A DNA stretch of 64,000 bases from a virus: IMG/VR virus record IMGVR_UViG_3300045988_144737, one strand, 5' to 3'. A model generated the notes under the pieces. The model saw only the letters and a list, made by a program, of their open reading frames with translations, had not been told where the DNA came from and did not search any database. This document shows, piece by piece, positions 5,243-50,417 of this stretch. The translations under genes and the position numbers were made by a program. Positions within the stretch are counted from its first letter, which is position 1. Each line of letters opens with the position of its first letter.

Positions 5243-7465
5243 TTAATTCTCCTCCTTCAACAACCCACATAAAAATGTTTGGCGTGCTTGAACACCACTT
5301 GTTCGTGTGGCGTGTATTAAAGCATCTGTTTTAGCACAAAGAATACATCTTTTCTTAGCTCTAGTAATCATTGTATATAGTAATTCCTTATTCAATAATT
5401 TATATGCTGTATAATCTAACGCTCCAATCACAATATCTCTTTGAGAACCTTGAAATTTATGGCAAGTAATTGCATATGCCAAATCAATAGAATCAAACAT
5501 TTTATAATCAACTTCGACTTCTCCACATAAATCAAAGTCACAAACAAATGAATTGTTTTTATAATCAATTGAAATAACTTTGCCTTGATAACCGTTGAAC
5601 ACATCCACAAGACCATCGCTTGTCTCAATCTTTGTTTTATTTTTTGTGTTAATAATTCTATCTCCTACATATATAGAATAATCCTTGTTAATTTGTAGTG
5701 GTTTTCCTTTGATATAGGCATTGTCTAATAAATATTTTTGAATATGTCTATTAAGGCTTAAACAAGACGAATCTCCTTTATTTCGCATTGGTGAAATAAT
5801 TTGTATTTTAGATGTATCTTGAGTTGCTTCTACGCTCTTTTCATAATATTTTAAAACATATGGCAATGTCAATTTGTTTTCAGCATAGGTTTGTAATAAA
5901 AAATCTTTCATTTCTCCTCTAATGTCATTTCCATAAAAATCATTAGAACATAATTGCTCTTTCATTCTTACCTTTGTAGCCTCTGTTATAATGGCGGACT
6001 TTTTAGCTTGTCTAAATATTTGCGTAAATTCAACTACTGGAACAACTCCACTATTAACAATATCTCTAAATACCGAACAAGCACCAAGCGATTCTAATTG
6101 TGCTAAATCACCTAACATAATTAGTTGTTTTCCGTCATCGATAGATTGTACCAATCTGTAAAATAACTCCCCATCGACCATAGAGCTTTCGTCAAGAATA
6201 ACGCTATCCATCAACGGATTATCCCTATTCTTTAACCATTCTCCGCCATCCCCAAGACCATATCCTAATAATCTATGAATTGTTGAACCATCTTGCCCCA
6301 CAACTTCACCTAATCTTGATGCAGCCATGCCAGACAAAGCAGTTAAATTATAATATTCATTAGAACAAGAAATAATACCTTTTACAACAGTTGTCTTTCC
6401 AGTACCAGCAGGAGAGTTAATGGCTAAAACATTTTTACTTAACGCTAATTTAATTGCATTGGCTTGCTCATCACTATATTTAAACCCTTGCTCTTCTTCT
6501 ACTTGAGACATTCTTTTATTAAATTCTTCTACTTCATCTTTACTCATTTGTCTATCTTGCTTTAACAATCTCATCAATTCACGACAAATACCCACCTCTA
6601 AATTCCTAGTTTTAACCATGGATATTTTAGTTCGCTCCTCGTTTCTCCATACAATGTTTTTATCAACCAATTCATCCAAAGCGTCTCGTGTCGATAAAAT
6701 AATTTTTTTCTTAGTTTGCTCATCTAAAACTATATCAGGAAATAATGTATAAACCTTATCTACAATTTGTTGCGAATTCAACCATGTGTCACCGTTACTA
6801 TTACTTTCTAGTAATGTGTGCATAATATATCCCCCAATTCGATATGTGCTAAATTTCTTAATGCCGACTTTTAATGCTATTTCATCAGCTTTAGCCCAAC
6901 CAATTCCAGGAACATCTATAATCAACCTATAAGGGTCGTGCTGTATCATATAGACCGCTTTTGACACATCTGGATAAATATTAGCTATAGTTTTAATAGT
7001 GTTCGCAGTTAAGCCATATTGGCTCATAGCACTAATAAAACTAAAATATTTTTTATTAAGCGTAAATCTTTCAATTAACTTCTTTGCACTAGACTCTCCA
7101 ATCCCCTTAACCTTAGTAATTGAATCAATATCTTCGCTCGCTATAACTTCGATTGGATTATCATACACCTCTTTAAATGATTTAATTTGTCGAGGGGTTA
7201 AAATAATTCCCAAAAAGCTATCAACATTCATCTTATCAACATCGATTGACTCATTAACAAAAACAATGTCTACTTGTTTTCCATACTTTTCATCATTAAC
7301 CCAATTTCCAATAAGCGAATAAACAACGTTTGATTTTGGTTCTGGAAATATCCCTTTCGCAGTAAACGTTTCATTGCTTTCAATATCGAGAAGGGAATAG
7401 ATGCCCCAATCTCCTTTGCGATATACTATTTTCTTAACGTATACACTTGTTTTAATTTCATTCAT
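5243..7465 (-). CDS. RecD-like (RecD2-type) SF1 DNA helicase
   Basis: Walker A NSPAGTGKTT and Walker B ILDESSMVD; N-terminal OB-like region, HhH-like segment and C-terminal SF1 motifs (TCHKFQGSQ). Confidence 0.85.
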   Translation of the reverse strand: MNEIKTSVYVKKIVYRKGDWGIYSLLDIESNETFTAKGIFPEPKSNVVYSLIGNWVNDEKYGKQVDIVFVNESIDVDKMNVDSFLGIILTPRQIKSFKEVYDNPIEVIASEDIDSITKVKGIGESSAKKLIERFTLNKKYFSFISAMSQYGLTANTIKTIANIYPDVSKAVYMIQHDPYRLIIDVPGIGWAKADEIALKVGIKKFSTYRIGGYIMHTLLESNSNGDTWLNSQQIVDKVYTLFPDIVLDEQTKKKIILSTRDALDELVDKNIVWRNEERTKISMVKTRNLEVGICRELMRLLKQDRQMSKDEVEEFNKRMSQVEEEQGFKYSDEQANAIKLALSKNVLAINSPAGTGKTTVVKGIISCSNEYYNLTALSGMAASRLGEVVGQDGSTIHRLLGYGLGDGGEWLKNRDNPLMDSVILDESSMVDGELFYRLVQSIDDGKQLIMLGDLAQLESLGACSVFRDIVNSGVVPVVEFTQIFRQAKKSAIITEATKVRMKEQLCSNDFYGNDIRGEMKDFLLQTYAENKLTLPYVLKYYEKSVEATQDTSKIQIISPMRNKGDSSCLSLNRHIQKYLLDNAYIKGKPLQINKDYSIYVGDRIINTKNKTKIETSDGLVDVFNGYQGKVISIDYKNNSFVCDFDLCGEVEVDYKMFDSIDLAYAITCHKFQGSQRDIVIGALDYTAYKLLNKELLYTMITRAKKRCILCAKTDALIHATRTSGVQARQTFLCGLLKEEN

Positions 7466-18386: not shown

Positions 18387-18532
18387 AACCTTATAAAACT
18401 CTATAAAGCTTGTTTAATTCCCTATTCAACGTATCCTATTTTGCTACAAAGCTACTCTAGTTTGATATAATACTCCAAGGGCGTAAATTCCCATACAACG
18501 CATGGTACACATTAGTATTATCTTTTAAGTGA
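18387..18532 (-). ncRNA. putative omega-RNA (reRNA) scaffold of TnpB-1
   Basis: Non-coding tail after the tnpB stop. It carries TTTACGCCCTTGGAG and a terminal TTAAACAAG-hairpin(CTTTATA/TATAAG)-GTTTTGG module that parallels the tail of TnpB-2. Confidence 0.5.
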
Positions 18533-27952: not shown

Positions 27953-27980
27953 ATGTACTTCCTCCGTATTTGTAATTTAA

Positions 27981-28101
27981 TAAAATTATTTTTATTGATA
28001 AAACTCCGTTTTGAAAAAATATTTTTATTATGCAATCTAGGATTTTGAAAAATAAAAAATTATTTTTATTAACAAAACTATAAAATAAAAAAATATTTTT
28101 A
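27981..28101. repeat. four AAAAWTATTTTTA units (two about 75-nt repeats) in the mazF leader
   Basis: Copies at 27982, 28015, 28056 and 28089. The 24-nt cores AAAATTATTTTTATTGATAAAACT and AAAATTATTTTTATTAACAAAACT match 22/24. Confidence 0.6.
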
Positions 28102-28180
28102 GCGTTATTATATAGATACTATATATATTTTATTATAGTTTTATTGATATCTTTTATATCAAACCTTGATTACGATACTA

Positions 28181-28208
28181 ATTATATCATATATTTAACT
28201 AATGTCAA
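28181..28208 (-). promoter_or_regulatory. strong extended -10 promoter TTGACA-16-(TGA)TATAAT driving the mazF-int leftward operon
   Basis: Minus-strand TTGACA (28203-28208) and TATAAT (28181-28186) with TG at -15/-14. Confidence 0.65.
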
Positions 28209-28959
28209 TATTTAATTTCAATTATTTATTTTTGAACGTTTAATATAGTATAAGCATAATACTACCAAACAAATTATTTAGATTTAATCAATATAATTCT
28301 ATTTTTAAAACAACACAACCATTAATACAATTTATTAATACTTTGCAACATTCCATTATCGACCATACGAGAGCAATAATGAATGATTATATATAGTTAT
28401 CATAAAACAATAAAACAACTCTACACAATGTCATATGGTTTATATACACCCATATATAGATTTGATGAATTATATTAACTTTGTAGACCATAAACACATT
28501 CTATTAAATCTATTAATTATAAACATAATAACAAATACAACTAGCTAATACTTACAACCATCTTATTTACAATCAACATTCCTTACGCCAAACACAAGCG
28601 AAGTCACCACATTGTATAGCAATGAAATGGTTACAAAAGCAATTATGAAACCCTTATATTAATAACTTTTAAGAACCAAAAGCGACGATAAATGTATCAA
28701 TTGTAAAATTGTTTGCTTTTAAAACCCACATTTTACATACCACGGTTTAAAACTTTGCGACATTATACATTGTACGCTTTACTCGAATTGCGACATTGCA
28801 AACTTTAAGCCCTTTATTTTTTGTAGAAAGGATAAACCCCCTGCTTTACTGGATTTCCGACATTTCGAATTTTCCTATTTATTCCCTATAACCCAACTAT
28901 ATCAAGAAAAAACAGATCCGTCAAGAGATTAACTAAGAAAATTTTTTAAAAAATAATTG

Positions 28960-28988
28960 TTGACTTATTTATTGAACACTAGTATAAT
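28960..28988 (+). promoter_or_regulatory. consensus sigma-A promoter TTGACT-17-TATAAT (first rightward early promoter)
   Basis: TTGACT 28960-28965 and TATAAT 28983-28988. Confidence 0.75.
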
Positions 28989-29014
28989 ATTAGATGAAAG
29001 GAGGCATAATAATA

Positions 29015-31991: not shown

Positions 31992-32186
31992 ATGGAAACA
32001 AGATTAAGAAAATTATTAAAAAAAGAACTACTAACAGAAAATGAAGTTAAGGAAGTTGAAGAACACGAAGAAGTATTAGAATGTATATATAACGGATATT
32101 TTGATAATAAATACGCTCCAAGTACGTCGTGGTTTAGCGTTAAAACAATCGACAATGGGGAGTTTGATATTTATTGCAAATATTAA
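31992..32186 (+). CDS. hypothetical protein (64 aa from METRL)
   Basis: AAAGGAGAAGGG precedes the ATG at 31992. Confidence 0.55.
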   Translation: METRLRKLLKKELLTENEVKEVEEHEEVLECIYNGYFDNKYAPSTSWFSVKTIDNGEFDIYCKY

Positions 32187-32278
32187 AAAATAATGCTTTA
32201 CTTTATAATATAATTATGGTAATATAATATACGTGAAAGGGTTATATTGATTAATTACATAATAAGGAGGTGAATTTT

Positions 32279-32365
32279 ATGGAATGGTTTATTATGTTGC
32301 CAATGATATTATTTATAGTATTTAGTCTAGCAATGTTATTAATAGATAAATTTAGCAAAAAGTAA
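32279..32365 (+). CDS. 28-aa hydrophobic peptide (MEWFIMLPMILFIVFSLAMLLIDKFSKK)
   Basis: Strong SD AAGGAGGTGA 6 nt before the ATG; single TM-like segment; below the ORF-track cutoff. Confidence 0.5.
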   Translation: MEWFIMLPMILFIVFSLAMLLIDKFSKK

Positions 32366-32400
32366 TAACTATACATAAAAAAATAATAACCCTTTTACAT

Positions 32401-32525
32401 TTTTCTTTGATTTAATTAGGTAGCTACGCATTAATATGCTTATGTACTTTTGTTTTCGATTACATTCTAAATATTCTATGTTTGGATTTTATAAAAATGT
32501 AGTTACCTAATTAAATTAAAGAAAG
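32401..32525. repeat. 27-bp imperfect inverted repeat (24/27) with about 71-nt loop
   Basis: Arm TTTTCTTTGATTTAATTAGGTAGCTAC (32401-32427) against GTAGTTACCTAATTAAATTAAAGAAAG (32499-32525). Confidence 0.7.
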
Positions 32526-32543
32526 ATATATTTAAAATAATTC

Positions 32544-32587
32544 TTTACTTTAATATATTAAACGCTTATAATAGTAGGTGTAAAAAA
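32544..32587 (+). promoter_or_regulatory. early promoter TTTACT-17-TATAAT with partial flanking inverted repeat
   Basis: -35 at 32544-32549 and -10 at 32567-32572. TTCTTTAC upstream pairs 7/8 with GTAAAAAA at 32580-32587. Confidence 0.65.
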
Positions 32588-32602
32588 CAAGGAGGATAAA
32601 AA

Positions 32603-32965
32603 ATGAAATTAAAATTTAAAGAATTATCTAGCAATACGATATTTACATTAGATAATATTAAAAGCGCAATCAAGGAAAGCGAAAATATTACCATAACAAC
32701 AAAGGACAATGAAACAAGTATTTTACTTGATTGTTCTATATGTAATAATGTATTAGTGGATATTTTAGAAAATGATTTAAGAAATAAAAATATCAATATC
32801 TATGATAATCTAACAAATGAGTTTCTTGTCTATGGTAAGGGTGAAAAACTTTTCCAATTATTAAACTTTAGTTATATGACATATCATGAAGTTATAGCAA
32901 TTACACAAAATAAAGATAGTTATGATATATTTATAACTAATCTTAAAACAAAAGATATTAAATAA
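32603..32965 (+). CDS. early protein, paralogue family A (120 aa)
   Basis: SD AAGGAGGA upstream. The C-terminal about 78 aa are near-identical to 29015-29383. Confidence 0.7.
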   Translation: MKLKFKELSSNTIFTLDNIKSAIKESENITITTKDNETSILLDCSICNNVLVDILENDLRNKNINIYDNLTNEFLVYGKGEKLFQLLNFSYMTYHEVIAITQNKDSYDIFITNLKTKDIK

Positions 32966-33069
32966 GGAATAAAAAATTTTACTTATGGATTAAAAAAATA
33001 CTTTACTTTATAATATTATTATGATATCCTTATATTGTAGAAAGGGATAGGAAATTAATTCCTATAAAG

Positions 33070-33354
33070 GTGAAAGAAATGTTTGTAAAAAATTGTGGTA
33101 ATGTTAAAATGGTTTTATTCTTAAATGATGGTTGTTGTGATATGTGTTTGATTGATGAATATAATACATATAACAAGTATAGTGATTTTTCAAGTGTGAT
33201 TGACACTTTCGAAACACAAATGATATTAATTTCTAGTGGTGATGATGTTAAAACATTCTTATTATATAAAGAAGAATATTATGAAATTGGTGAATTGATT
33301 GATATATTTGAAGAAGGATGTAAATATGTTTATGGCATGAAAGGTTGTGAATAA
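33070..33354 (+). CDS. hypothetical protein (94 aa; GTG, or ATG at 33079)
   Basis: ORF in the early string; no motif recognised. Confidence 0.5.
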   Translation: MKEMFVKNCGNVKMVLFLNDGCCDMCLIDEYNTYNKYSDFSSVIDTFETQMILISSGDDVKTFLLYKEEYYEIGELIDIFEEGCKYVYGMKGCE

Positions 33355-33550
33355 AATGAACTTAGGCGAATTATTAATGAAAGATTTTAAAGATGATGTT
33401 ACTATTTTTGATAAAAATAATAACATTATTGCAAGTGGTAATAACGATGATTTATTTGATATGCTAGGGTATTATTTCCTAGATTTAAAAGTTCTTAGAA
33501 ATGACGATGGTATGATTAATGTTGATATTAGTTTAGGAGGTAATGAATAA
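33347..33550 (+). CDS. early protein, tandem module family B (67 aa)
   Basis: Shares L.ELL....V..FDKNNNI.A.G....LF..L.YYFLDLKV......NVD..LGG.E with the next ORF. Confidence 0.6.
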   Translation: MNKMNLGELLMKDFKDDVTIFDKNNNIIASGNNDDLFDMLGYYFLDLKVLRNDDGMINVDISLGGNE

Positions 33551-33744
33551 TGACGTTAAAAGAATTATTACTTGAAAACTTAGATAGAGAAGTTGTTTTA
33601 TTCGACAAAAACGACAATATAGTTGCAAATGGTAGAGCAGGTAATTTATTTAATACATTGAGTTATTATTTCCTAGATTTAAAGGTTATTTTTAATGGTA
33701 AACTTTGGGTTAATGTTGATTTTAAATTGGGAGGTGATGAATAA
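33550..33744 (+). CDS. early protein, tandem module family B (64 aa)
   Basis: Paralogue of 33347-33550; stop and start overlap (ATAATG). Confidence 0.6.
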   Translation: MTLKELLLENLDREVVLFDKNDNIVANGRAGNLFNTLSYYFLDLKVIFNGKLWVNVDFKLGGDE

Positions 33745-34133
33745 TGGAATTATTAAAGGATTATTTAGAAAGTGAAGAGTTTAATAAAAAAATATTTATC
33801 CATGATAAAAATGAAAGGCTAGTTGTCTACGGGGATAAAGAATCATTAAAACACCAATGCAACCATAAGCTTCAAAGCGCAAGAGTAGCCAAAGTCTTAG
33901 ATTATGGAAATACCTTTTACATTTTTGTGGATTTTATGGCTCCATTAAAATTAGGAGATGTTTTACGGGATTACTACTATGATTTTGTGTATATCTATGA
34001 TTCTAATGGACAAGCAATAGTAAAAGCCAAAAGCTCAAGCATTTTAAAAATAATGGAAAAATCTTTATATAATAAAGAAGTCTTTGCCATCAAAGAATAT
34101 GTTGATGATATTTATATTGGAATCAATTTATAA
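33744..34133 (+). CDS. early protein with two family-B-like modules (129 aa)
   Basis: N-terminal half LLKDYLES...IFIHDKNERLVVYG and C-terminal half LGDVLRDY..YIYDSNGQAIV repeat the family B pattern more loosely. Confidence 0.55.
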   Translation: MELLKDYLESEEFNKKIFIHDKNERLVVYGDKESLKHQCNHKLQSARVAKVLDYGNTFYIFVDFMAPLKLGDVLRDYYYDFVYIYDSNGQAIVKAKSSSILKIMEKSLYNKEVFAIKEYVDDIYIGINL

Positions 34134-34154
34134 ATATAAATAAGTAAATAAAAT

Positions 34155-34182
34155 ATAACCCTATTTTAATAAGTAGGGTTAT
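34155..34182 (+). terminator. hairpin terminator closing the early operon
   Basis: 9-bp stem ATAACCCTA/TAGGGTTAT with a 10-nt loop and a weak T-tract (TTATAG). Confidence 0.5.
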
Positions 34183-34189
34183 TTATAGT

Positions 34190-36630
34190 ATCTAATAAAA
34201 TACATATAATAATCTACAAGCTAAATATAAAGCCATAGAGAAACGTTTTAGGAATTTAGGTATTGTTATACCCTTTTAATAAAACAACGCCCTAATGGCT
34301 TGTATTTAGCTTATTTTAATATATCGATAATGTAAGTGTTTTTATAATCATAATTGTAATTACAAAGTGCTATATCAATATATTTGCTATATCAATATAT
34401 TAAGGTGTTAGATTATAAAGATTATTAGAATAAGCTATTTTAAAGCCTATACAAGCGCTTTTGTGTGTAATAGGTATTATTTATCCTATCATAGTAAAAC
34501 GATTGCCTATGGGCTTATATTTGCGTTCTAGGGCTATCATATGCTTTTATATCTATACTATGTGGAACAATGTTATTTGATTGTAATGATAATGATATAG
34601 TATTGATTATTGTTGAATGTAGTTTTTAAAACCATGTTTAATAGTTGGTATAATCAAATGAATGTTATTAAGTAATAATGTATATATGTAATAATGTTAT
34701 AACAATATAATGATAGGTAATAATGTAAGTTCATTGTCATATTGTTATAACATTATTAAGTTAGATATATATTATTATTGTATTGATATATCATGGTTAT
34801 ATAGTTATGTAGTAATGTTAATGTATGTAATATGATGTAGTATCATATACTATGTAATGTAATGATAATGAATATGTATTGTAATATAAATATGATAATT
34901 ATATTTTATTATTTAGATAAATATATTATTGTTTATATTTATATTAATATGATTTAGTGTGTGATGTCTATTGTAGAGCATTTAACGCTTGTATGAGCGT
35001 TGTTTGTGGTAGTTAGGTATAATTGGTATAGTTATATAGTTTATGCGTGTATGGTCTTGTATTGTGATTGTATGGTGTGTAGTAGGATATATGATTATAT
35101 TTATATATTGTTAAGGTGCTTAACTATGTTATATATGTATGCTATGGTGTATGGCTTATACATGGCTTGTGTGGTGTGTTTAATGGTATATGGTGTAAAT
35201 GTATTAGTTAATAGGTTTGGTGCTTAGATTGGCTTGTATTGTCCTTGTGGTGGTTGTTAGGGTAATATGGTTAGTGTGGTATAGGTAGTATGGGTAATGG
35301 TATAGGATAGTAAGCGGGTTGGTGATTGTGTGTGTTGTGTGTGTGTGGGTAAGTATTTTTTAAAAGGTATGCCATAGTCCAATCGTTAAGGTGCTTAAGT
35401 ATTGGGGTAATTTTAAAATGTATTATAATATTTAGAATTTAAAATTATATTTCTTTTTATTTAAAAAATACAATCTAATATGTATTAGGTTGTATAAAAT
35501 AGGGGGCATGGTACAAGTTAGCGTATATGGGGGCATATTTGAAAATATAATCGCTATTTTATTTGATAGGATGGTGCTTGTACTTATCACATACGCTTTA
35601 TATCAATTTCGTATGTTCGTAGTTCAATTCATTAACTATGGCTTAAAATTTAACGTATTCGTGAACGATATATAATTTATAATGTAATTTAGCCATATAT
35701 TCCGTTTATGATATATTATTCATATATAGTCGTTACCGTGTTATATGATAGTCGCATAAATTAATGTTCTTATACTACTATGTATATGCAATTGTTGATA
35801 AAATAGTACCTATGGCATTGTAATTTATGATATATGCGATAAATAAGTGTGATTTTAAAATAGATTGATTTTATGTATGATAATATGATTGAATTACTAT
35901 ATATAAACGTGCATAAAAGGCATAATGATAAAAATTGTAACCACATTGGGTGTATTAGGTGTATTAAATATTAAATTTATTAAATTAATTGATTTTATTA
36001 GTTGCTGTATATAACTATATAATATATATACACTGACTATCAAAAACTTATAAACTTATAAATTTTATAAAATTTAATCTATCAACTCATCACAAGTTAC
36101 AAAAAATAAATATAATACTCGAACGAATGTGAGAGCAAGTGAACAAAGTGAACGCCCAAGCAACGAAATTGAACGAAGTGAAATGAGTACATATATAAAG
36201 ACAAAACAACTAATACACATATAATACTTTATCAATTGCGAATTGCTTAATTAACAATGGATTAATTTATCTACCACATTTCACTATGCAAGAGATAATT
36301 ACTTAATCAATAATAACATATTGCAATAAGAAAACTTGTACGCTAAAGAAATATATATATTGATTAAGTATTTCCAATGCAACTAGCGCTTACGCCTACC
36401 GCACTTCGTTTGGTACAACATTTCATGTTGTAATTATATTTTTATTTAATATACATTTAATTAATAATAAATATAATATACCTAAGCAACGACGAAGTCA
36501 TTTCACGCTAGTGAAACAATCATAGTACAGCAAATTAAAATATTGAATAAATTTAATAATGGGTATTGAAATGATATTATGTATATGTTATTATTATCTT
36601 GTGAATAAGATATTTATGAAAGGAGATATA
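34190..36630. other. 2.4-kb ORF-free region: C-depleted GT-rich tract, (TG)n, dispersed ATGGCTT motifs, GTGAA iterons (candidate origin or ncRNA locus)
   Basis: No SD-preceded ORF; strand-asymmetric composition; repeats described in the findings. Confidence 0.6.
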
Positions 36631-36631
36631 T

Positions 36632-38491: not shown

Positions 38492-39826
38492 ATGATGAAT
38501 TTAGATAAGTTAAGCAATGGTCAAGTTGTTAAAAACTATAAAACAATGTGCGAAATATTAGAAGAGCCTTACATGGGTGGTAAAAGTAGGGTTATACAAT
38601 TAGATAAATGGAGATTGTATTTTGATTATGGTAAAGACGGTGTAAAGTTTATAATCAATGATATTTATACACAAGAAAAAACAAATAAATTAAAACAAGC
38701 ATTAGATGATGTAAAAAGAAATAAAATAGAAAATAGAAAAAAAGAAACTCAAAGAAAAAAAGATTTAGAGAAAAAAGAGAAGGAACAAAAAAGAGAAGAG
38801 AAAAGAAAAGAAAGAGAGCGATTGGAGAGGGAAAAGTCAAAAAAGAAAAAATTGAGAGAACAAAAGAAATTAGAGAGAGAAAAATTAAAGAAAGAAAAAG
38901 AAGAACGAAGGAAGCTAAGAGAACAAAAGAAATTAGAAAGAGAAGAAAAACAAAGAGAAAAAGAAATAAAAAGAAAAGATAGAGAGCGATTGAATAAAGA
39001 AAAAGAAGAAAGAAGAAAATTAAGAGAAGAAAAAAAATTAGAAAAAGAAGAAAAGAAAAAATTAAGCAAAGAAAGAAGAGAAAACGGTCTTAGCAACTTG
39101 TTATACAACAATATATGTTGTGTCTTGAATAAATACAAAGAAGATAAAATTGTATTAACAAAAAGTAAACTATTAAAAGATGTTGGTATGATTAACGATA
39201 AGTTTGGAATGAAGTTAAGCGATAAGGAATTGGAAAAGATTAATTCAAATCAATTTAACTATAATGAATTTAATAAAATTGTATTAAGTAGAATATCATC
39301 AACCCTTGATTATGTGTTTAAAAAAATGTCTAATGATTGTTTAATAAAAAGAGATACTTATTTATTAAGATATGATAATCACGAATTTTATGATTTATCA
39401 ACGTTTAGAGAAGTTGATATGAATGAAGAATATATTATTAAAGATATTTATAATCAAGTCTTAGCAGAGTTTGAATTAGGAAAAGAAGCAGACCTTATGT
39501 ATAAATCTAATAGCGTTAAAGAAAGTTTTTACGCTAAGGTCAGCGAAGAAATAAATAATAGATTTGATTGTAACGGACATTGCAAAGCGTATGATATTCA
39601 AATTTTAAATAGGGATAAGTTAAAAAATAAAACATTAGATAAAAGAAGATTAAATAATACATTTGTTACAATATTAAAAGATACTATCAAAAACAAATAT
39701 ACCAGAACTAATAATAAGGGCATGATTATGTTATCTGAAAATAATGACAAGGCTTTTATGTATGATAATTACTTTTTATCTAATCAATATGATTTATTAA
39801 ATAAATTTATAAGATTAAACAACTAA
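38492..39826 (+). CDS. hypothetical protein with central about 115-aa K/E/R-rich charged helix (444 aa)
   Basis: SD AGGGGGA upstream. The central segment KKEKEQKREEKRKERERLEREK...KLREEKKLEKEEKKK is encoded by a polypurine tract. Confidence 0.65.
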   Translation: MMNLDKLSNGQVVKNYKTMCEILEEPYMGGKSRVIQLDKWRLYFDYGKDGVKFIINDIYTQEKTNKLKQALDDVKRNKIENRKKETQRKKDLEKKEKEQKREEKRKERERLEREKSKKKKLREQKKLEREKLKKEKEERRKLREQKKLEREEKQREKEIKRKDRERLNKEKEERRKLREEKKLEKEEKKKLSKERRENGLSNLLYNNICCVLNKYKEDKIVLTKSKLLKDVGMINDKFGMKLSDKELEKINSNQFNYNEFNKIVLSRISSTLDYVFKKMSNDCLIKRDTYLLRYDNHEFYDLSTFREVDMNEEYIIKDIYNQVLAEFELGKEADLMYKSNSVKESFYAKVSEEINNRFDCNGHCKAYDIQILNRDKLKNKTLDKRRLNNTFVTILKDTIKNKYTRTNNKGMIMLSENNDKAFMYDNYFLSNQYDLLNKFIRLNN

Positions 39827-40191: not shown

Positions 40192-41747
40192 ATGAAATCT
40201 CCAAAGTTGTATAAAGTTTTAAATTTTAATTTAAAGGAAATTATTGAAGAAAACTTTATGATAGTTGGCGATAATCAATATATCAAAAGTCATTTAAAGT
40301 ATACCAGTGATAATCAAGAGTTTAGACAAATTAGATTAATTACGAATACAAATAATAAAATGAATAAATATATTGCTTTTGTTGAATTTGATGGAGGAAC
40401 AAAGGAAGAGGATTTAAAATCAATAGTTAGAAACGGTTTTAGATTTAATGACCAAGAATTTGTATTAAGTGAACGCAGTGGTTCTATGAGCAGAACTGGG
40501 AAGTTAAGTTTTGTTGATAAAACTATCGCACAAGAATTAGATAAAAGAATATCTATGGATAATAGGATTGACAAAACAGTAGTAAGCAAATTATCAGCAT
40601 ACAGAGGGTTGATGTTAACTGGGTGTCATATGTTAGAAAATTATATGCCTAAGATAATTATTACCAAAGGATTAAATAGAACTATAAAAAATGTAAAAAT
40701 TAAATGTTTGCATGATAAACAAGATACATTCAAAAATGAAGATGGAGAAATTATCGAATATACTAAAAAAGTAATAGAGGAAGAAACTAGAGATATTGAA
40801 ATAGATTGTTTTGATGGAATGGGTATAGTTCATCCTTTAGTTGTTGAAGAAATGACTAAAGAGTTAGATTTGCCAAAGGATATTAATACTATGATTGTTA
40901 GAGCGTGCTATATGAAGGGTTGTATTCATAAGGTTGATTATACAAAGTTTTTTGTTGACCATGGTGTTGAATGGATAGAAGATATTTGGGGTGTTAAACA
41001 TAGCGTTTATGAACCTATGATTATTATGGATAAGTCTATGTATAAAGGTTTTAATTATTTCAAATATTACAACGATTATAGAGATTGGGAATATTATTTA
41101 TCTAAGTTAGAAGAGTATGACCATGTATTTGGCATTGCTAAATACAATTTTAATGAAAAAGATGAGAAAATTTATACAAAGGCAAATTATCAAATATTAC
41201 AAGATTTAAACATCCCATTTTCAGATTTTGAGAAGTTGGGAGATAAAACTTTGGATTATTTTCAAAAAGTCATAGATGGCAAAGAGGAATATGTAAAAAC
41301 ATTCTTAGGAATTTGTGGAGATAAGTATAAACTTAGTAGTAATTATATTAAAGCCATTGCTAAAAATCCAGAGATGCTTAAGCAAGAGGGTGTAGTAAAT
41401 CATGTTATAAATTTATTAAAAGGAAATATAAACGATGCTAAATGTGGAAAGTTATATTTAAGAGGTTGTTTTAAGTTTGCAGTTCCTGATTTGATTTTGT
41501 TTATGGAGCATATTGGTGGACTAGAGCCAAATGGTTGTTTAGGATTTCAAGAGTTTTGGACTAGAGGTAGATGTGGTTACGAAGTTGGAAAAGAATATCT
41601 CATTACACGAAATCCACATATTTGCAGCTCAGAACACGATGTAGTTACATATGTAAGAAATGAACTAATCGAAAAGTATTTAGGGCATTTGCAAAATGTT
41701 TGTATGGTGGACTGTAATAGCCCACACATGGCGAGATTAAATGGGAT
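40192..41747 (+). CDS. RdRP-fold (YonO/QDE-1-like) single-subunit RNA polymerase, exon 1
   Basis: Ordered motifs: SKLSAYRGLML, FDGMGIV, VRACYMKGCIHKVD, DKSMYKGF, ANYQILQDL, ITRNPHICSSEHD, SPHMARLNG. The tracked ORF runs 11 codons further into the intron. Confidence 0.8.
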
Positions 41748-42660
41748 AGGACAATCTGTCCCACTATATAGAAATATATAGTTAAAAACACAGTGAACCT
41801 AGAAATCTAGGGTGTATGATTTACGATAAGGAATAGTAGGAAATGACTATTAGAAATCATGCTAACAGGGGAAGCATTAATTGTAATCCTGTGTTGTATT
41901 AAATTATAATCTATATTATATTAATTTAAAGGAGGTGTTGATATGTCATTTGAAATAAAAATTAACAATGAGAAGGAATGGAAAGAAGTCAATATTAATG
42001 GATTATCATATGTTATAAGTAATTATGGTGATGTTGTTACCTTATCAAATCGCTCTCATAAAATCGTTCCACATTTGAATAAGGACGGTTATCCAATAGT
42101 AACAGTTGGAAAAAATCCTAGAGTTGGAAAACCAGTTCATTTATTGGTTGCCATGTTATTTGTAGATGGATATAAAGATGGATATGAGGTAAATCACAAA
42201 GATTTTGATAGAACTAATTACCATTATTCTAACTTAGAGTGGGTAAGCCATAAAGATAATATTAATTACTCTTATAAAAATGGTAGACACACTAAAAGAA
42301 TAAATAGTTTGTATGGAAATAATAGAAAATTAAAAAAAGAGGCTTTCTTAGATATATTAAATAAACTAGAAAATGGTATGCCTTGTTGTGATATAGCAAT
42401 ATATTATGGCGTATCTGTTGACGTTGTTTATAACATAAAAAGCGGAAAGACTTATAAAGAATATAGATAATATAGATATAGTTTAATGTAATCAACAGAC
42501 TAGCGAAAGAGTATTGTATGTTCCTATGGGAATATACAAGAGTAATTGAGTAGGGTACATTTGGAGTGAAACTCTCTATTTGGAAGCGCTGTGAGCCTAA
42601 GTCAGTAATGATATGGCTATGATATAGTCGGATATAAATACAATATATGTGTTTATATAG
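41748..42660 (+). mobile_element. group I intron with HNH homing endonuclease (boundaries +/- 3 nt)
   Basis: A 23-nt block GTGAACCTAGAAATCTAGGGTGT (41793-41815) is identical to the nrdD intron. Shared 3' blocks are GTGAAACTC..TTTGGAAGCGC and a GATATAGTC P7-like block. U precedes the 5' splice site and G ends the intron. Confidence 0.75.
41943..42470 (+). CDS. intron-encoded HNH homing endonuclease (NUMOD4 + HNH_3, I-HmuI-like)
   Basis: WKEV...YVISNYGDV (NUMOD4-like); GYPIVTV...HLLVAMLF...VNHKDFDRTNYHYSNLEWVSHKDN (HNH); C-terminal HTH-like segment; SD AAAGGAGG upstream. Confidence 0.85.
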   Translation: MSFEIKINNEKEWKEVNINGLSYVISNYGDVVTLSNRSHKIVPHLNKDGYPIVTVGKNPRVGKPVHLLVAMLFVDGYKDGYEVNHKDFDRTNYHYSNLEWVSHKDNINYSYKNGRHTKRINSLYGNNRKLKKEAFLDILNKLENGMPCCDIAIYYGVSVDVVYNIKSGKTYKEYR

Positions 42661-43699
42661 GGATTTTGACGGTGATTTATTGTTCGTTTTAGACGAACCA
42701 ACCATGATTAAAGGGGTTGATATGTCGATTCCAGTAACTATGGATATTCAAGATAAAATAACTGTAGAACCAGATTATTATAATATTGATAGCATCGAAA
42801 AATTAATAATTAATAATTCTAGTAATAGAATTGGAGAATATTCTAACTACAGCAGTTGCTATCATAACAAGATGAAAAAAACAGAAAAAACAAAAAAAAT
42901 ACATGATGATTATATCTCTACGCTAAGTATTTTTGTTGGCAAAGAAGTTGATGCGTCAAAAACTGGGATAAGATTTAATTTACCAAAAGCAATTGCCAAG
43001 TATGCAAGACCAATTCCATACTTTATGAAGTATCGTAGTCCATATTATGCCACCTTAAGAGATTTTAATAAATACCGAAGTAATATGAACGCAATGTGTT
43101 TTAAAATAGAGAATTGGGAAAGAAAAATAAAATACACAAGAACTTATGATAACTTTGATTATACTATTATGATAGATGAAGGTGTTGAGGATAATCAAGA
43201 TGTTATGGGTAAAATAGAAAAGATTTATTTAGAATTTGTTAACTTATCGCAAGATTTAATTATTGAACAACGTAATTTAAATACTTATGGAGACAATAGA
43301 ATAAAACAAGTAAAGGATAAAAATAATTTAACTATTAAAGAAGCCAAGGATTTGAATAGATATGAAAAAGCAAAAGAGTATATCCAAGATAATTATTTAA
43401 GTGTTAATAAAAGGTTTGCAAAAGAGTATCAAGTTGATTGGGCTTATTATTATGAGGATTATAAAGACAAGTTGTTAAAAATTACAAGCAACAAAAAATT
43501 GATTGTAAATTGTATTGTTAAATTATGTTATGAGAAATATCCAAAAAAAAGCAAAAAGATTTTATGGGCGGTGGTTGGAGATTGGTTACCTAATAACATA
43601 GAAGCAGTCACTCATAATATACCATATCGAGATGATAATGGTGATATTGAGATATTAGGAGAAAGATATTCATTAAAAGAAATTAAAAGCGAGGTGTAA
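42661..43699 (+). CDS. RdRP-fold (YonO/QDE-1-like) RNA polymerase, exon 2 (starts at the catalytic DFDGD)
   Basis: (M)DFDGDLLFVLDEP corresponds to DLDGD.YFV.WD of RdRPs and NADFDGD of multisubunit RNAPs. There is no SD before the tracked Met. Confidence 0.8.
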
Positions 43700-44550: not shown

Positions 44551-44574
44551 TGTGTGAAAAGCGAGGTAAAATCA

Positions 44575-45678
44575 ATGGAGAAAGCTTATAAATATAGGAT
44601 TTATCCAAATAAAAAGCAAAAAGAAATAATTGCTAAAACATTTGGTTCATGTAGATTTGTTTACAATAAATATTTAGCAAAACGCATTGAAATGTATGAA
44701 AATAATAAAGAAACATTTTCATATGTGCAATGTGCCAATGATATGAAACAACTTAAATCAAAATTAGAATGGTTGAAAGAAGTTGATTCCACTGCTCTCC
44801 AATCTTCTCTCAAAGACTTGGATATGGCTTATCAAAAGTTCTTCAAAGAACACTTTGGTTATCCTAAATTCAAATCTAAGAAAACACATAGATTTTCATA
44901 TAAATCAAAATGTGTAAATAAAAATATTCAGTATTGCGGAAAACATATTAAACTTCCAAAGTTAGGAATGGTAAAAACGAAAAACAAGTTGATACCACAA
45001 GGAAGAATACTCAATGCCACCGTTTCACAAGAACCGAGTGGAAAATATTATGTGTCTATTTGTTGTATTGATGTTGATATTACTACATTAGAAAATACAA
45101 ATAATTACATTGGATTAGATTTGGGAATTAAAGAATTTTGCATCACAAGCGATGGAGAAATGATAGAAAATCCTAAGTATCTCAAGAAGTCATTAGATAA
45201 ACTTGCAAAATTACAAAGAGAATTATCTCGAAAATCAAAAGGTAGTTCAAATCGTAATAAAGCAAGAATTAAGGTGGCAAGATTACAAGAGCATATTACT
45301 AATCAAAGAAAGGATTTTCTACATAAGTTGTCTACAAAAATAATTAGAAACAATGATATCGTGTGCATAGAAGACCTTCAAGTAAAGAATATGATTAAAA
45401 ATCATAAACTTGCTCGTAGTATTGCGGACGCATCATGGTCAGAATTTGTTAGACAATTGGAATATAAAGCAAATTGGTGTAATAGAAAAGTTATTAAAGT
45501 AGATAAATTCTTTGCAAGTTCTCAAACTTGTAATGTATGTGGATATGTAAATAAGGGAACTAAAAATCTTAGTGTCAGAGAATGGGATTGTCCTTGTTGT
45601 CATACTCACCATGATAGAGATATAAATGCTGCTATCAATATTTTTAATGAAGGATTAAGAATGTCGCAAGTAGCATAG
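44575..45678 (+). CDS. tnpB: TnpB RNA-guided endonuclease (IS200/IS605 OrfB)
   Basis: YKYRIYPN N-terminus; RuvC triad GLDLGIKE / VCIEDLQ / DRDINAAIN; Zn ribbon CNVCGY...CPCCH; GAGGT 8 nt before the ATG at 44575. Confidence 0.9.
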
Positions 45679-49192: not shown

Positions 49193-49472
49193 TAAAGTAT
49201 GTTTAGCCGAAAATAATGTCGACATATTTGGGAAAAATGTAAATCCATATTGCGAATATTATTTAATTTGCAAAAGCAACACTCATAGTGTAGTTTCTAA
49301 TGGAGTGCAAGACTTCATTTTAAGTAATAAGTTTATTATCTCCAAGGACTTGTTTTGTAAAATTAGTCCTTTTTAATATCACTTCCCTTTTAATTATATG
49401 AGGAGTTTTTCCATTCTCCTCATAATACATAAAAATTGTAAGAATGTTTTTGGTGAAAGGAGGTCATTTTCA

Positions 49473-50417
49473 ATGGCTGTTAGTTCAAAAAAGAAATTAA
49501 TTAATACAAAGCCACAAAAGGAAAAATGGCGTTGTTTTCATTGCAAAGAAGAATTGGACGAGTCTAAATTTTATAAATCTCGTTCTAACGCTTTTTACAT
49601 TATGCCAATTTGTAAGGAATGTACTAAAAAAATGTATATCCAAATGGTAAAAGAGTATGATAGCGTTCATAGAGCAATATTTAGATTGTGCGGTTTATTG
49701 GATGTTTATTATGATAAGAATTTAGTTGATTCGATTATCGATAAAGCGGTAGAAAAAGAGTGGGGAGAAGAACAAATCTTACCAGAATATATTAGATTTG
49801 TCAATAGTGCAACCCAATATCGTGGATTAAACTTTTATAATAGTGACGAAAATAGGGGTTCAGTCGAAGATGTTCCTTTGGTGACTGTTGAAAAAGAGAA
49901 TATGGAAGTTTGGGGCGGAGGTTATTCCGCCGAAGATTATAAAAGATTAAATCAATTGTATAAAAAATGGTCTGATGGTGTTCCATTAGATGATGTTATA
50001 AGTATATCATATATTAGAGATTTGTGCAGAGTGGAATTAAGTATTGAAAAATCTGTAATATCAAATGGTAAACCAACCGAATCGTTATTAAAACAAAAGT
50101 CATCAATTATTAAAGATATGGGCTTAGACCCTGCAACTCTAAAGAAAAACAAAGAGGCAAGCGAGGGAAATAAGACATTTGGAAAATGGATTGATGATAT
50201 TGAACAAAATATGCCTGCTGAGTTTTTCTCAGATAGAAATCTTTATAAAGACCATCAAGGTTTTGAAAAATACTTTAATTTACACATTGTTCGCCCTATA
50301 AAGAATTTATTATTGGGTCATAGAGATTTTCCACACATTAACTACAATGAAGATGAAATTGATGGTAGTTTTGAGAATGATATGGAGATATCTTATGACA
50401 AATTCGAAGGTGAATAA
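49473..50417 (+). CDS. putative terminase small subunit (Zn-finger N-terminus)
   Basis: GAAAGGAGG precedes the ATG at 49473; CFHC...CKEC cluster. Assigned by position immediately upstream of the large terminase. Confidence 0.45.
   Translation: MAVSSKKKLINTKPQKEKWRCFHCKEELDESKFYKSRSNAFYIMPICKECTKKMYIQMVKEYDSVHRAIFRLCGLLDVYYDKNLVDSIIDKAVEKEWGEEQILPEYIRFVNSATQYRGLNFYNSDENRGSVEDVPLVTVEKENMEVWGGGYSAEDYKRLNQLYKKWSDGVPLDDVISISYIRDLCRVELSIEKSVISNGKPTESLLKQKSSIIKDMGLDPATLKKNKEASEGNKTFGKWIDDIEQNMPAEFFSDRNLYKDHQGFEKYFNLHIVRPIKNLLLGHRDFPHINYNEDEIDGSFENDMEISYDKFEGE

Follow-up and report, generated by a model that had tools for sequence, protein, structure and literature searches.

In headful phages the pac site tends to be short, idiosyncratic and difficult to locate. 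In Bacillus phage SPP1 the site is tripartite (pacL, pacC and pacR), with two flanking elements around the site of cleavage; these flanks contain short, defined binding boxes for the small terminase, together with phased A-tracts, and lie inside the terS gene. Here we analyse a region of about 2.5 kb without a conserved open reading frame (ORF), located at 34134-36631 of a 64,000-nt stretch of viral DNA (IMG/VR record IMGVR_UViG_3300045988_144737, referred to below as the window). By analogy with related phages whose packaging sites have been mapped, we give an even chance to the reading that this is the pac region of an SPbeta-like phage and that a C-poor, G- and T-rich tract within it forms the upstream arm of the site.

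In SPbeta, Fink and Zahler (1982) are said, beside Kohm et al., to have placed the opening point between yonR and yonP. According to the preprint text of Kohm et al. (bioRxiv 10.1101/2021.11.22.469490), restriction analysis and read mapping locate the SPbeta-like opening point between these genes, just upstream of yonP-yonO, and packaging proceeds towards yonP-yonO. The same source describes an excess-coverage block of ~250 bp, precisely sized and unexplained, that follows the opening point, and its supplement gives a 250-bp pac fragment with packaging starting at fragment position 251. We placed this fragment on SPBc2 and read it in the sense of the polymerase gene. A G>C arm (23% G, 9% C) has the packaging start at its 3' end, the next 250 bp are unskewed, and a C-rich, G-poor arm of about 300 nt (C 32%, G 4%) begins exactly at +250, with yonP at +672. 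The 250-bp coverage block (SPBc2 64531-64781; 6532-6782 of the SPbeta locus L063) is the exact unskewed interval between the two arms.

A comparable arrangement was found in the Enterocloster phages PMBT24 and CB457/CB473, in which the polymerase family, the family of the large terminase subunit (TerL) and late-gene synteny are as in the window phage. The PMBT24 record is stated to begin at a pac site defined with PhageTerm (PMC11035940). A C-rich, G-less tract stands at the record start and a G-rich, C-less tract at the record end, and position 1 is the exact junction, so that the order is an arm with G 47% and C 2%, a 330-bp core and an arm with C 33% and G 3%. In CB473P3 the arms lie side by side in a 3.2-kb ORF-poor region, as a G-arm (G up to 46%, C 1%), a core of ~300 bp and a C-arm (C up to 38%, G 1%), each arm having a run of >200 nt free of the depleted base. 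A gap free of ORFs, located 7 kb upstream of the polymerase gene, holds a G-arm, a 300-bp core and a C-arm in a fourth lineage (L047, 49% GC). In the large group of YonO-phages with 40-45% GC, no extreme tract was found within 10 kb of the polymerase gene, and a moderate C-rich arm lies 6-7 kb upstream of it, partly beside ORFs. The pac cut coincides with the arm edge in SPbeta and PMBT24, that is, in relatives of the window phage only. Mirror arms defined by composition are not mentioned in the parts consulted of the two papers that mapped these sites (bioRxiv 10.1101/2021.11.22.469490, PMC11035940).

We propose that the pac site of this group would be non-coding DNA upstream of the polymerase and late-gene operon, laid out in the polymerase sense as a G-rich, C-poor arm, an unskewed core of 250-330 bp with a G5 box, and a mirror C-rich, G-poor arm, and that terminase would cut at the inner (3') edge of the G-rich arm. 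The order of G-rich arm, core, C-rich arm and polymerase operon is found in the window, in SPbeta and in the Enterocloster lineages; the strong arm is the upstream one in the window, the downstream one in SPbeta and both in the Enterocloster phages. Unlike the flanks of SPP1 pac, the arms here are strand-polar, measure 250-450 nt, have neither motif nor phasing and are separated from the terminase genes by 15 kb. If the proposal is correct, a composition scan would predict the packaging cut to within tens of bases across the large SPbeta-like group of Firmicutes phages, many uncultured gut phages included, and the SPbeta-like 250-bp coverage block would gain a concrete meaning. The signal would then be strand-asymmetric composition and not sequence, which no current model of terminase recognition explains.

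The window represents part of the genome, ~100 kb in all, of a gut phage. On sequence grounds the phage belongs to the SPbeta-like group, because it has a YonO-type polymerase and because of its gene order. Leftward genes extend from about 27.9 kb and rightward genes from 29.0 kb. The rightward arm consists of small genes, the ORF-free region, four further small genes, a 444-aa gene and the YonO-type single-subunit RNA polymerase, downstream of which lie genes for an HU/IHF-like protein and an exonuclease, lysis genes, terminase, portal and structural genes. Identity of the polymerase to its counterparts is 24-26% for SPbeta and the ~100-kb Enterocloster phages, and 38-44% for many uncultured gut phages. 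Synteny of the polymerase, HU/IHF-like, exonuclease, terminase, portal and ferritin genes is common to the window phage and PMBT24. TerL has matches among the terminase families of PHROG and is 34% identical to PMBT24 TerL (E 2e-98). The protein encoded upstream of TerL (49398-50417) is 27% identical to its PMBT24 counterpart (E 2e-18) and, because its family has no assigned function, can be regarded only as a candidate small terminase subunit.

The first-pass annotation of the window had estimated by a manual count that C is almost absent from the plus strand between about 34560 and 35350. Exact counting bore this out: 34560-35350 contains 29 C in 791 nt (C 3.7%, G 22.6%, T 44.2%, A 29.5%) and is the lowest-C 800-nt interval of the 64 kb, over which C averages 14.3% (standard deviation 4.5%). 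As a neutral reference we used the 4-fold degenerate sites in 59 genes of the phage, which have 7-9% C and 6-10% G and show no G/C skew. Relative to 8% C at these sites the depletion is significant (P(C<=29) = 5e-7). The larger anomaly, which the annotation had missed, is the enrichment in G: 34961-35350 has 31% G, with P = 2e-30 compared with neutral sites (6-10%) and 1e-11 compared with other intergenic DNA (17%). Tract G is thus 3-4 times the neutral value, and tract C is about half of neutral. The sense strands of this phage are C-poor in general; since the 4-fold sites are unskewed, the skew of coding DNA stems from amino-acid usage and not from mutation. With G at 31% and C at 5%, compared with about 8% each at neutral sites, mutation bias fails as an explanation for the tract, and mutational equilibrium as its origin was rejected because the 4-fold sites lack a G>C skew. 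The composition of the tract is actively maintained by selection. Avoidance of C-containing target sites, one of four options put forward in the first-pass annotation, cannot account for the 3-4-fold enrichment in G or for the mirror G-less arms of the relatives.

Within the tract, an AT-rich block on the plus strand at 34661-34960 is poorest in C (C 2.3%, G 13%, 15% GC) and precedes the G+T-rich, C-poor arm at 34961-35347 (+; G 31%, C 5%, T 43%), which is the proposed upstream pac arm. The last 100 nt of the arm have 42% G and 1% C. The arm is closed by the imperfect (TG)n run at 35327-35347 that had already been noted; only 21 nt of the tract are true (TG)n. A close relative, Thomasclavelia phage TR-TP2 (PQ571310), is 90% identical over the ORF-free region and about 96% identical over the left arm. 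In its complete 101-kb genome all 16 extreme windows, together with the top signature site, fall within the homologous tract, which shows that the tract is single-copy; position 96,930 or thereabouts of the TR-TP2 record corresponds to 35347-35370 of the window.

Copies of the region were collected from TR-TP2, from three IMG/VR contigs and from Logan, ENA and JGI contigs. The tract is present in all seven carriers, that is, the related genomes having the region, the most distant copy being L020 (polymerase 93% and region 77% identical to the window). Divergence of the G-rich body in close relatives is 0.08-0.11 per site, compared with 0.08 at 4-fold sites in the flanking genes, whereas several other blocks of the region diverge at only 0.01-0.03, below second codon positions (0.034). 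The sequence of the AT-rich block is kept in close relatives (divergence 0.026 compared with 0.08 at neutral sites); it contains a perfect 20-nt inverted repeat (34689-34708 / 34739-34758) in a segment that is partly deleted in TR-TP2. Aligned with L020, the arm body shows 64% identity and many indels, yet the composition of the L020 arm (A.22, C.04, G.33, T.41) is as in the window. The arm body is bounded near its 5' edge by an invariant island, AGCGTTGTTTGTGGTAGTTAGGTATAAT (34996-35023, +), and at its 3' end by a conserved edge, GGTAAGTATTTTTTAAAA (35348-35365, +). The island ends in a TATAAT hexamer, overlaps a hairpin at 34983-35002 and is identical in all five aligned genomes, the 77%-identical L020 included; in the edge only the last base differs in L020. 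A body that drifts at constant composition between fixed islands indicates that composition and boundaries are constrained and that sequence is not.

The region had been described as a 2.4-kb interval free of ORFs, and this held: no ORF of >79 codons was found under genetic code 11, and no long ORF with code 4 or with TAG recoded. Recoding of TAA produces long frames on the minus strand because that strand is poor in G, and hidden genes of this kind were dismissed. The two ORFs previously discounted as artefacts of composition are broken in relatives and lack a third-position excess. ORF 35000-35227 is interrupted in TR-TP2 by frameshift and stop, and its variable sites fall 10/12/6 by codon position, and ORF 35490-35675 has early stops in 4/5 genomes. 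ORF 35770-35946 (minus), the only intact ORF of 35691-35950, has neither a Shine-Dalgarno sequence nor a third-position excess. Conserved small ORFs were accordingly rejected, every testable one being broken in relatives or lacking the third-position excess. The anomaly in the window is real, single-copy and non-coding, with a selected composition.

We also looked for signals of other kinds. None of the covariance models of Rfam 15 reached its gathering score on the region (best E-values 5-8), and no tRNAs were found there. The folding z-score of the tract is about 0 on the plus strand, giving no excess of RNA structure, and the minus-strand RNA is nearly structure-free (free energy 0 to -6 per 120 nt). 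The degenerate short repeats remarked on at first are present but barely enriched beyond composition: no k-mer of the tract is over-represented above z 4.5, and GGTATA occurs 5 times compared with 1.3 expected (z 2.6). The TTAAGGTGCTTAA hairpin boxes at 35111 and 35386 are exact duplicates, yet they are not kept in L020 and near-matches are no commoner than chance, and they were rejected as a repeated motif. No 10-11-bp helical phasing of the kind expected for DNA wrapping was detected in the window arm or in the Enterocloster arms. Promoter-like sites number 37, compared with 39 expected in shuffled sequence. A search for Chi sequences was confined to the SPbeta arm, where the host Chi is known; neither AGCGG nor CCGCT occurs, and a Chi-site array protecting a DNA end was ruled out for that arm.

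Position and orientation agree with those of the mapped pac sites. SPbeta, which packages by the headful mechanism, has its pac site in a non-coding stretch that lies upstream of the YonO polymerase operon and is oriented as in the window; there too, a G>C arm is followed by an unskewed core containing a G5 box. In the window, 4.8 kb separate the end of the arm from the downstream polymerase start (40192), and only plus-strand genes occupy this interval; the distance from cut to polymerase is about 0.9 kb in SPbeta and 9.6 kb in PMBT24. Like the ORF-free region of the window, the Enterocloster pac region is ORF-poor (about 3 kb), has several promoter-like boxes and conserves its composition while its sequence drifts. 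The 250 nt 3' of the window arm are not strongly skewed. This interval overlaps an unskewed conserved core at 35425-35600 (+), which is 89% identical to L020 and contains a perfect hairpin (35466-35493) and two G5 boxes (35502-35509 and 35529-35536). Measured from the arm end, the boxes lie at +154 and +181, compared with +198 in SPbeta and +252 in PMBT24, in the same orientation. The 17-mer TATATGGGGGCATATTT at 35524-35540 matches the core box of SPbeta pac, TATATGGGGGTATATTT, at 16/17 positions in the sense orientation. The 64 kb contain a single GGGGGYAYWTT, as do the searched loci of SPbeta and of CB473P3, where it falls inside the pac region in both; PMBT24 has one extra copy.

In a blind scan for the arm-core-arm signature, the score was the skew of one 200-nt interval minus that of a second such interval 200-350 nt beyond it. 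The highest-scoring position lies <=10 nt from the mapped cut in SPbeta (14 kb searched) and in PMBT24 (35 kb searched), and in the 64-kb window it is 35370. By analogy with these phages, the headful-packaging cut of the window phage is predicted near 35347-35370. Packaging would proceed towards the polymerase and structural genes, a direction suggested by the SPbeta analogy only. The TR-TP2 record has a 141-bp terminal overlap and an arbitrary start, which points to a circular assembly, as a headful phage would give. A packaging or terminal region had been among the four options of the first-pass annotation; it is the favoured one, given cuts at the edges of such tracts in two lineages, and the circular permutation invoked to bring it to an internal position is unnecessary.

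Several observations weigh against this assignment. The link to pac is by analogy only, because the window offers neither sequence homology nor a strong second arm. No homology was detectable between the region and the Enterocloster pac regions and cores, and none that could be aligned with SPbeta outside the 17-mer. That 17-mer match was noticed post hoc and has P 0.13 unweighted, or 0.02 (k=17) and 0.24 (k=14) when weighted. No mirror C-rich, G-poor arm was found 250-330 bp downstream, +250 to +600 having 14% G and 10% C. The only C>G stretch is a weak one at +730 to +1100 (36078-36447; C 16%, G 12%); the reversal towards C after about 35950 reported earlier is thus real, but its skew is only about -0.15 at 36000-36450. 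A second strong arm may not be obligatory, since SPbeta has one strong and one weak arm; in SPbeta the strong arm is the downstream C-rich one and the upstream arm is weak, the reverse of the window. The window arm is G+T-rich, in contrast to the G+A-rich arms of relatives, and both Enterocloster arms are extreme and purine- or pyrimidine-rich. The Enterocloster pac region also differs in lying 9.6 kb upstream of the polymerase gene, beyond a leftward gene block. The top scan site in the window largely follows from the tract being the most skewed sequence there, and the text of PMC11035940 does not allow a packaging direction to be deduced for PMBT24. A related phage (L013-L016) has neither the region nor the genes upstream, homology skipping from window position 31994 to 36619; this phage may share the terminase of the window phage or use another site. 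Finally, 2.5 kb is far beyond the needs of a pac site, compared with 0.95 kb for the SPbeta intergenic region, so that other functions surely reside there.

Among the alternatives, we considered a transcription-primed origin, in which a promoter, an AT-rich unwinding block and a G-rich stretch would together allow a persistent R-loop to prime DNA synthesis. Origins of this type include T4 oriF and ori(uvsY) and that of ColE1. Like these and other G-rich R-loop regions, the window has a G-rich, C-poor non-template strand past a promoter-like site and beside an AT-rich block: beyond an extended -10-like site (34625-34654) lie 300 nt of 15% GC and, past these, the G-rich arm, and iteron-like variable repeats with an AT-rich centre lie at 35951-36075. 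YonO-type polymerases are moreover described as being without the lid that limits RNA-DNA hybrids (PMC5467207). We compared the energies of hybrid and duplex with nearest-neighbour parameters. With G-rich RNA the hybrid is the more stable form in the Enterocloster arms (-0.11 to -0.24 kcal/mol per nt) and slightly so in SPbeta. In the window arm it has no advantage over the duplex, owing to the U-rich RNA that would be made: the difference is +0.003 kcal/mol per nt, which places the arm at the 18th percentile of the 300-nt intervals of the window, and it falls to -0.09 kcal/mol per nt only in the last 100 nt. On this measure the R-loop origin raised in the first-pass annotation is not supported for the tract. 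Unlike known transcription-primed origins, the tract has no link to replication genes, which lie 7-20 kb away on the other arm. Promoter-like sites are no commoner than in shuffled sequence, the polarity around the core in relatives (G-rich left, C-rich right) is of the terminus type, and it is mapped ends and not origins that fall at such arms. We therefore regard an origin in the tract as unlikely. A long non-coding RNA appears similarly improbable. It would be a G/U-rich transcript of the plus strand or a C/A-rich antisense, serving as a protein sponge or resisting a C-dependent RNase or Rho. The TATAAT island at the 5' edge, the drifting body and the invariant T-run element at the 3' edge have the look of promoter, body and end, other parts of the region resemble small transcription units, the phage encodes a MazF/PemK-type RNase, and the minus-strand RNA would be almost structure-free. 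However, both a canonical -35 element and a terminator hairpin are absent, and the sponge proposed at first is not supported for the tract itself, given the lack of an Rfam family, the z-score of about 0 on the plus strand, the lack of a repeated binding motif beyond composition and the unconserved sequence. The SPbeta arms are situated between divergent promoters, and transcription across them is not apparent; the mirror arrangement at the mapped DNA cut in relatives suggests a role at the DNA level.

Harmless GT-rich filler, produced by slippage such as (TG)n expansion or by local mutation bias, would account for a body that evolves at about the neutral rate with many indels, for the (TG)n at its end and the variable repeat copy number nearby, and for the absence of the region from L013-L016. 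Mutation pressure, however, would wipe out such a composition, given unskewed 4-fold sites. The composition is held at 64% sequence identity and in all seven carriers, the true (TG)n covers only 21 nt with no dominant k-mer, and non-homologous tracts of the same polarity recur at the mapped pac sites of other lineages. A functionless low-complexity spacer therefore seems quite improbable. Another possibility is a polar transcription insulator, where a C-rich, G-poor, unstructured antisense RNA would be an ideal loading site for Rho, ending leftward transcription, and the rightward G-rich RNA would be Rho-proof. The antisense RNA of 35000-35300 indeed folds near 0 and has 31% C and 5% G, and mirror arms in the relatives would halt transcription leaving the core both ways. 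Such an insulator gives no account of the mapped DNA cuts at arm edges; we consider it very improbable as the primary function, and it could be secondary to another role.

How might a pac arm without a conserved sequence work? The arms share only their G>>C strand polarity, and the strand whose 5'->3' direction points to the core is the G-rich one on either flank. Having neither motif nor phasing, the arms are unlikely to be recognized as double-stranded DNA in the ordinary way, whether sequence-specific or of the wrapping type. It is more likely that an arm acts via something that reads strand asymmetry than via sequence-specific double-strand binding. The asymmetry might be read on single strands that the cut exposes, by a nuclease or translocase with polarity, or through a transcript, and our best guess is a strand-polar function at or near a DNA end, via exposed single strands or a polar enzyme. 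A more specific version, to which we attach only a small probability, is that the arms are strand-polar elements that fix the position of the terminase cut and are not protein-binding sequences. A transcript, an R-loop or a single strand freed by resection or unwinding would then create a structure boundary at the inner edge of the arm, where the RNase H-fold nuclease of terminase would cleave, and the packaging start would be set by base composition, possibly coupled to the lid-less YonO polymerase. T7 needs its polymerase at the concatemer junction. If true, this version would explain why the ~250-bp coverage block of SPbeta is precisely sized.

The remainder of the region contains further candidate elements. 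A terminator hairpin (TAACCCTA...TAGGGTTA followed by a T-rich stretch; 34156-34181, +), conserved in relatives and with a z-score of -3.7, ends the upstream operon of small genes. It is followed at 34182-34211 (+) by a promoter-like TTTATA-17-TATAAT, a consensus match only, which carries the box AAAATAnATATAATA (34197-34211). The best matches of the 64 kb to this box cluster in the region, all on the plus strand, at 34197, 36103, 36212 and 36464. Directly 3' of the first lies a candidate small RNA (34218-34312, +), a conserved hairpin of ~95 nt with a U-run, separate from the tract. RNAalifold gives 33 pairs and -34 kcal/mol for it, with 1 compensatory pair, 4 one-sided G-U-compatible changes and 2 disruptions, and the folding z-score is -3.5 to -5.8. 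A perfect 17-nt tandem duplication, TGCTATATCAATATATT x2 (34368-34401), is single-copy in all relatives. The extended -10 promoter-like sequence just 5' of the AT-rich block, TTTAAA-18-(TG)GTATAAT (34625-34654, +), is again a consensus match only; it is mostly kept in relatives, with the TG dinucleotide substituted in L004 and L005.

Beyond the core, a conserved non-coding island at 35691-35950 is 88% identical to L020, and close relatives differ there by transitions only. It is followed at 35951-36075 by variable-copy, iteron-like tandem repeats with 9- and 8-nt units and with 18-nt units that are expanded in L004. This zone holds a 45-nt imperfect inverted repeat, and its AT-rich centre (36001-36045) is 100% identical to L020. 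It is possibly a protein-binding or origin element; an origin in this zone, or regulatory RNAs, could coexist with a pac site. The most conserved block (36076-36200, +; 96% identity to L020, divergence 0.02) includes the promoter-like box at 36103-36117, after which GTGAAC / GAACGAA repeats occur at 36120-36185. The next box (36212-36226) begins a stretch (36212-36447, +) with a possible transcript of ~200 nt ending in a hairpin (36414-36432) and a T-run; its fold is plausible, with only 1 compensatory pair. Small RNAs elsewhere in the region, apart from the tract, are plausible. Covariation was set aside as support for RNAs in the conserved islands, since divergence is too low and yields one compensatory pair each. 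The last box (36464-36478) is followed by an operator-like perfect palindrome, TTTCAC-GCTA-GTGAAA (36501-36516), invariant in L020, the two together spanning 36464-36516 (+). A promoter-like TTGAAA-17-TATTAT and a ribosome-binding site, AAGGAG (36620-36625), within 36566-36631 (+), precede the first downstream gene (ATG 36632).

Other observations concern the records sampled. The metagenomic contigs of L011 (MT835481; 44351-44735) and L062 (1-270) end inside a skewed arm, and that of L020 (1-50) ends about 40 nt upstream of the G-rich arm; skewed tracts may break assemblies or mark coverage discontinuities. Contig and locus ends were rejected as physical termini, being scattered or set by storage boundaries. 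Inside ORF 38492-39826, a K/E/R-rich repeat is specified by an extreme purine-rich coding tract at 38550-39150, in which A makes up about 54-66%, C about 3-5% and T about 8%. The GenBank record of TR-TP1, which lacks the region, begins mid-way in this tract and ends at about window position 28985; from these limits the 'complete genome' is probably short by about 10 kb. TR-TP1 was rejected as proof that the region is dispensable, because a start inside a low-complexity coding repeat represents an assembly break and makes the record uninformative on this point. In L013 (12637-13935), as in L014-L016, a reverse-transcriptase gene (Pfam RVT_1, 432 aa) lies ~2 kb downstream of a shared 178-aa gene. 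The yonK-yonN interval of SPBc2 (L063 1153-2835) is a large non-coding region, and such regions near the polymerase gene seem typical of the SPbeta-like group.

The YonO-type polymerase gene of the window is split into 40192-41781 (529 aa) and 42647-43699 (350 aa, the Pfam RdRP C-terminal part). Residues 1-518 of the N-terminal part are 99% identical to TR-TP1/2, in both of which the polymerase is one unbroken 864-aa gene; L017 and L018 are split as in the window. The ORF between the halves (41943-42470) has NUMOD4 and HNH_3 homing-endonuclease domains, and the insertion matched no Rfam intron family. A 374-aa transposase (44554-45678; phrog_506, E 8e-137) stands between the post-polymerase gene and the HU/IHF-like gene, a position at which it does not occur in TR-TP2 and L017. 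A second ORF-free gap of >1 kb (27953-28993) lies at the switch from leftward to rightward genes and has repeated AT-rich boxes, a G-poor, mildly A/C-rich stretch at 28300-28620 and a near-consensus promoter, TTGACT-17-TATAAT, at 28961-28989. The C-poor bias noted earlier for 28.3-28.7 kb in the leftward sense has the polarity stated (plus strand C 18%, G 8%) but is far less extreme than that of the tract. Since integrase and MazF-like genes adjoin it, this gap is likely to be the attachment site attP or to be involved in lysogeny control. At 18418-18481 (-), between two leftward genes of the replication module and beside MerR-like/DnaB-like genes, we found a RAGATH-18 RNA (RF03064; 70.8 bits, E 3.6e-12).

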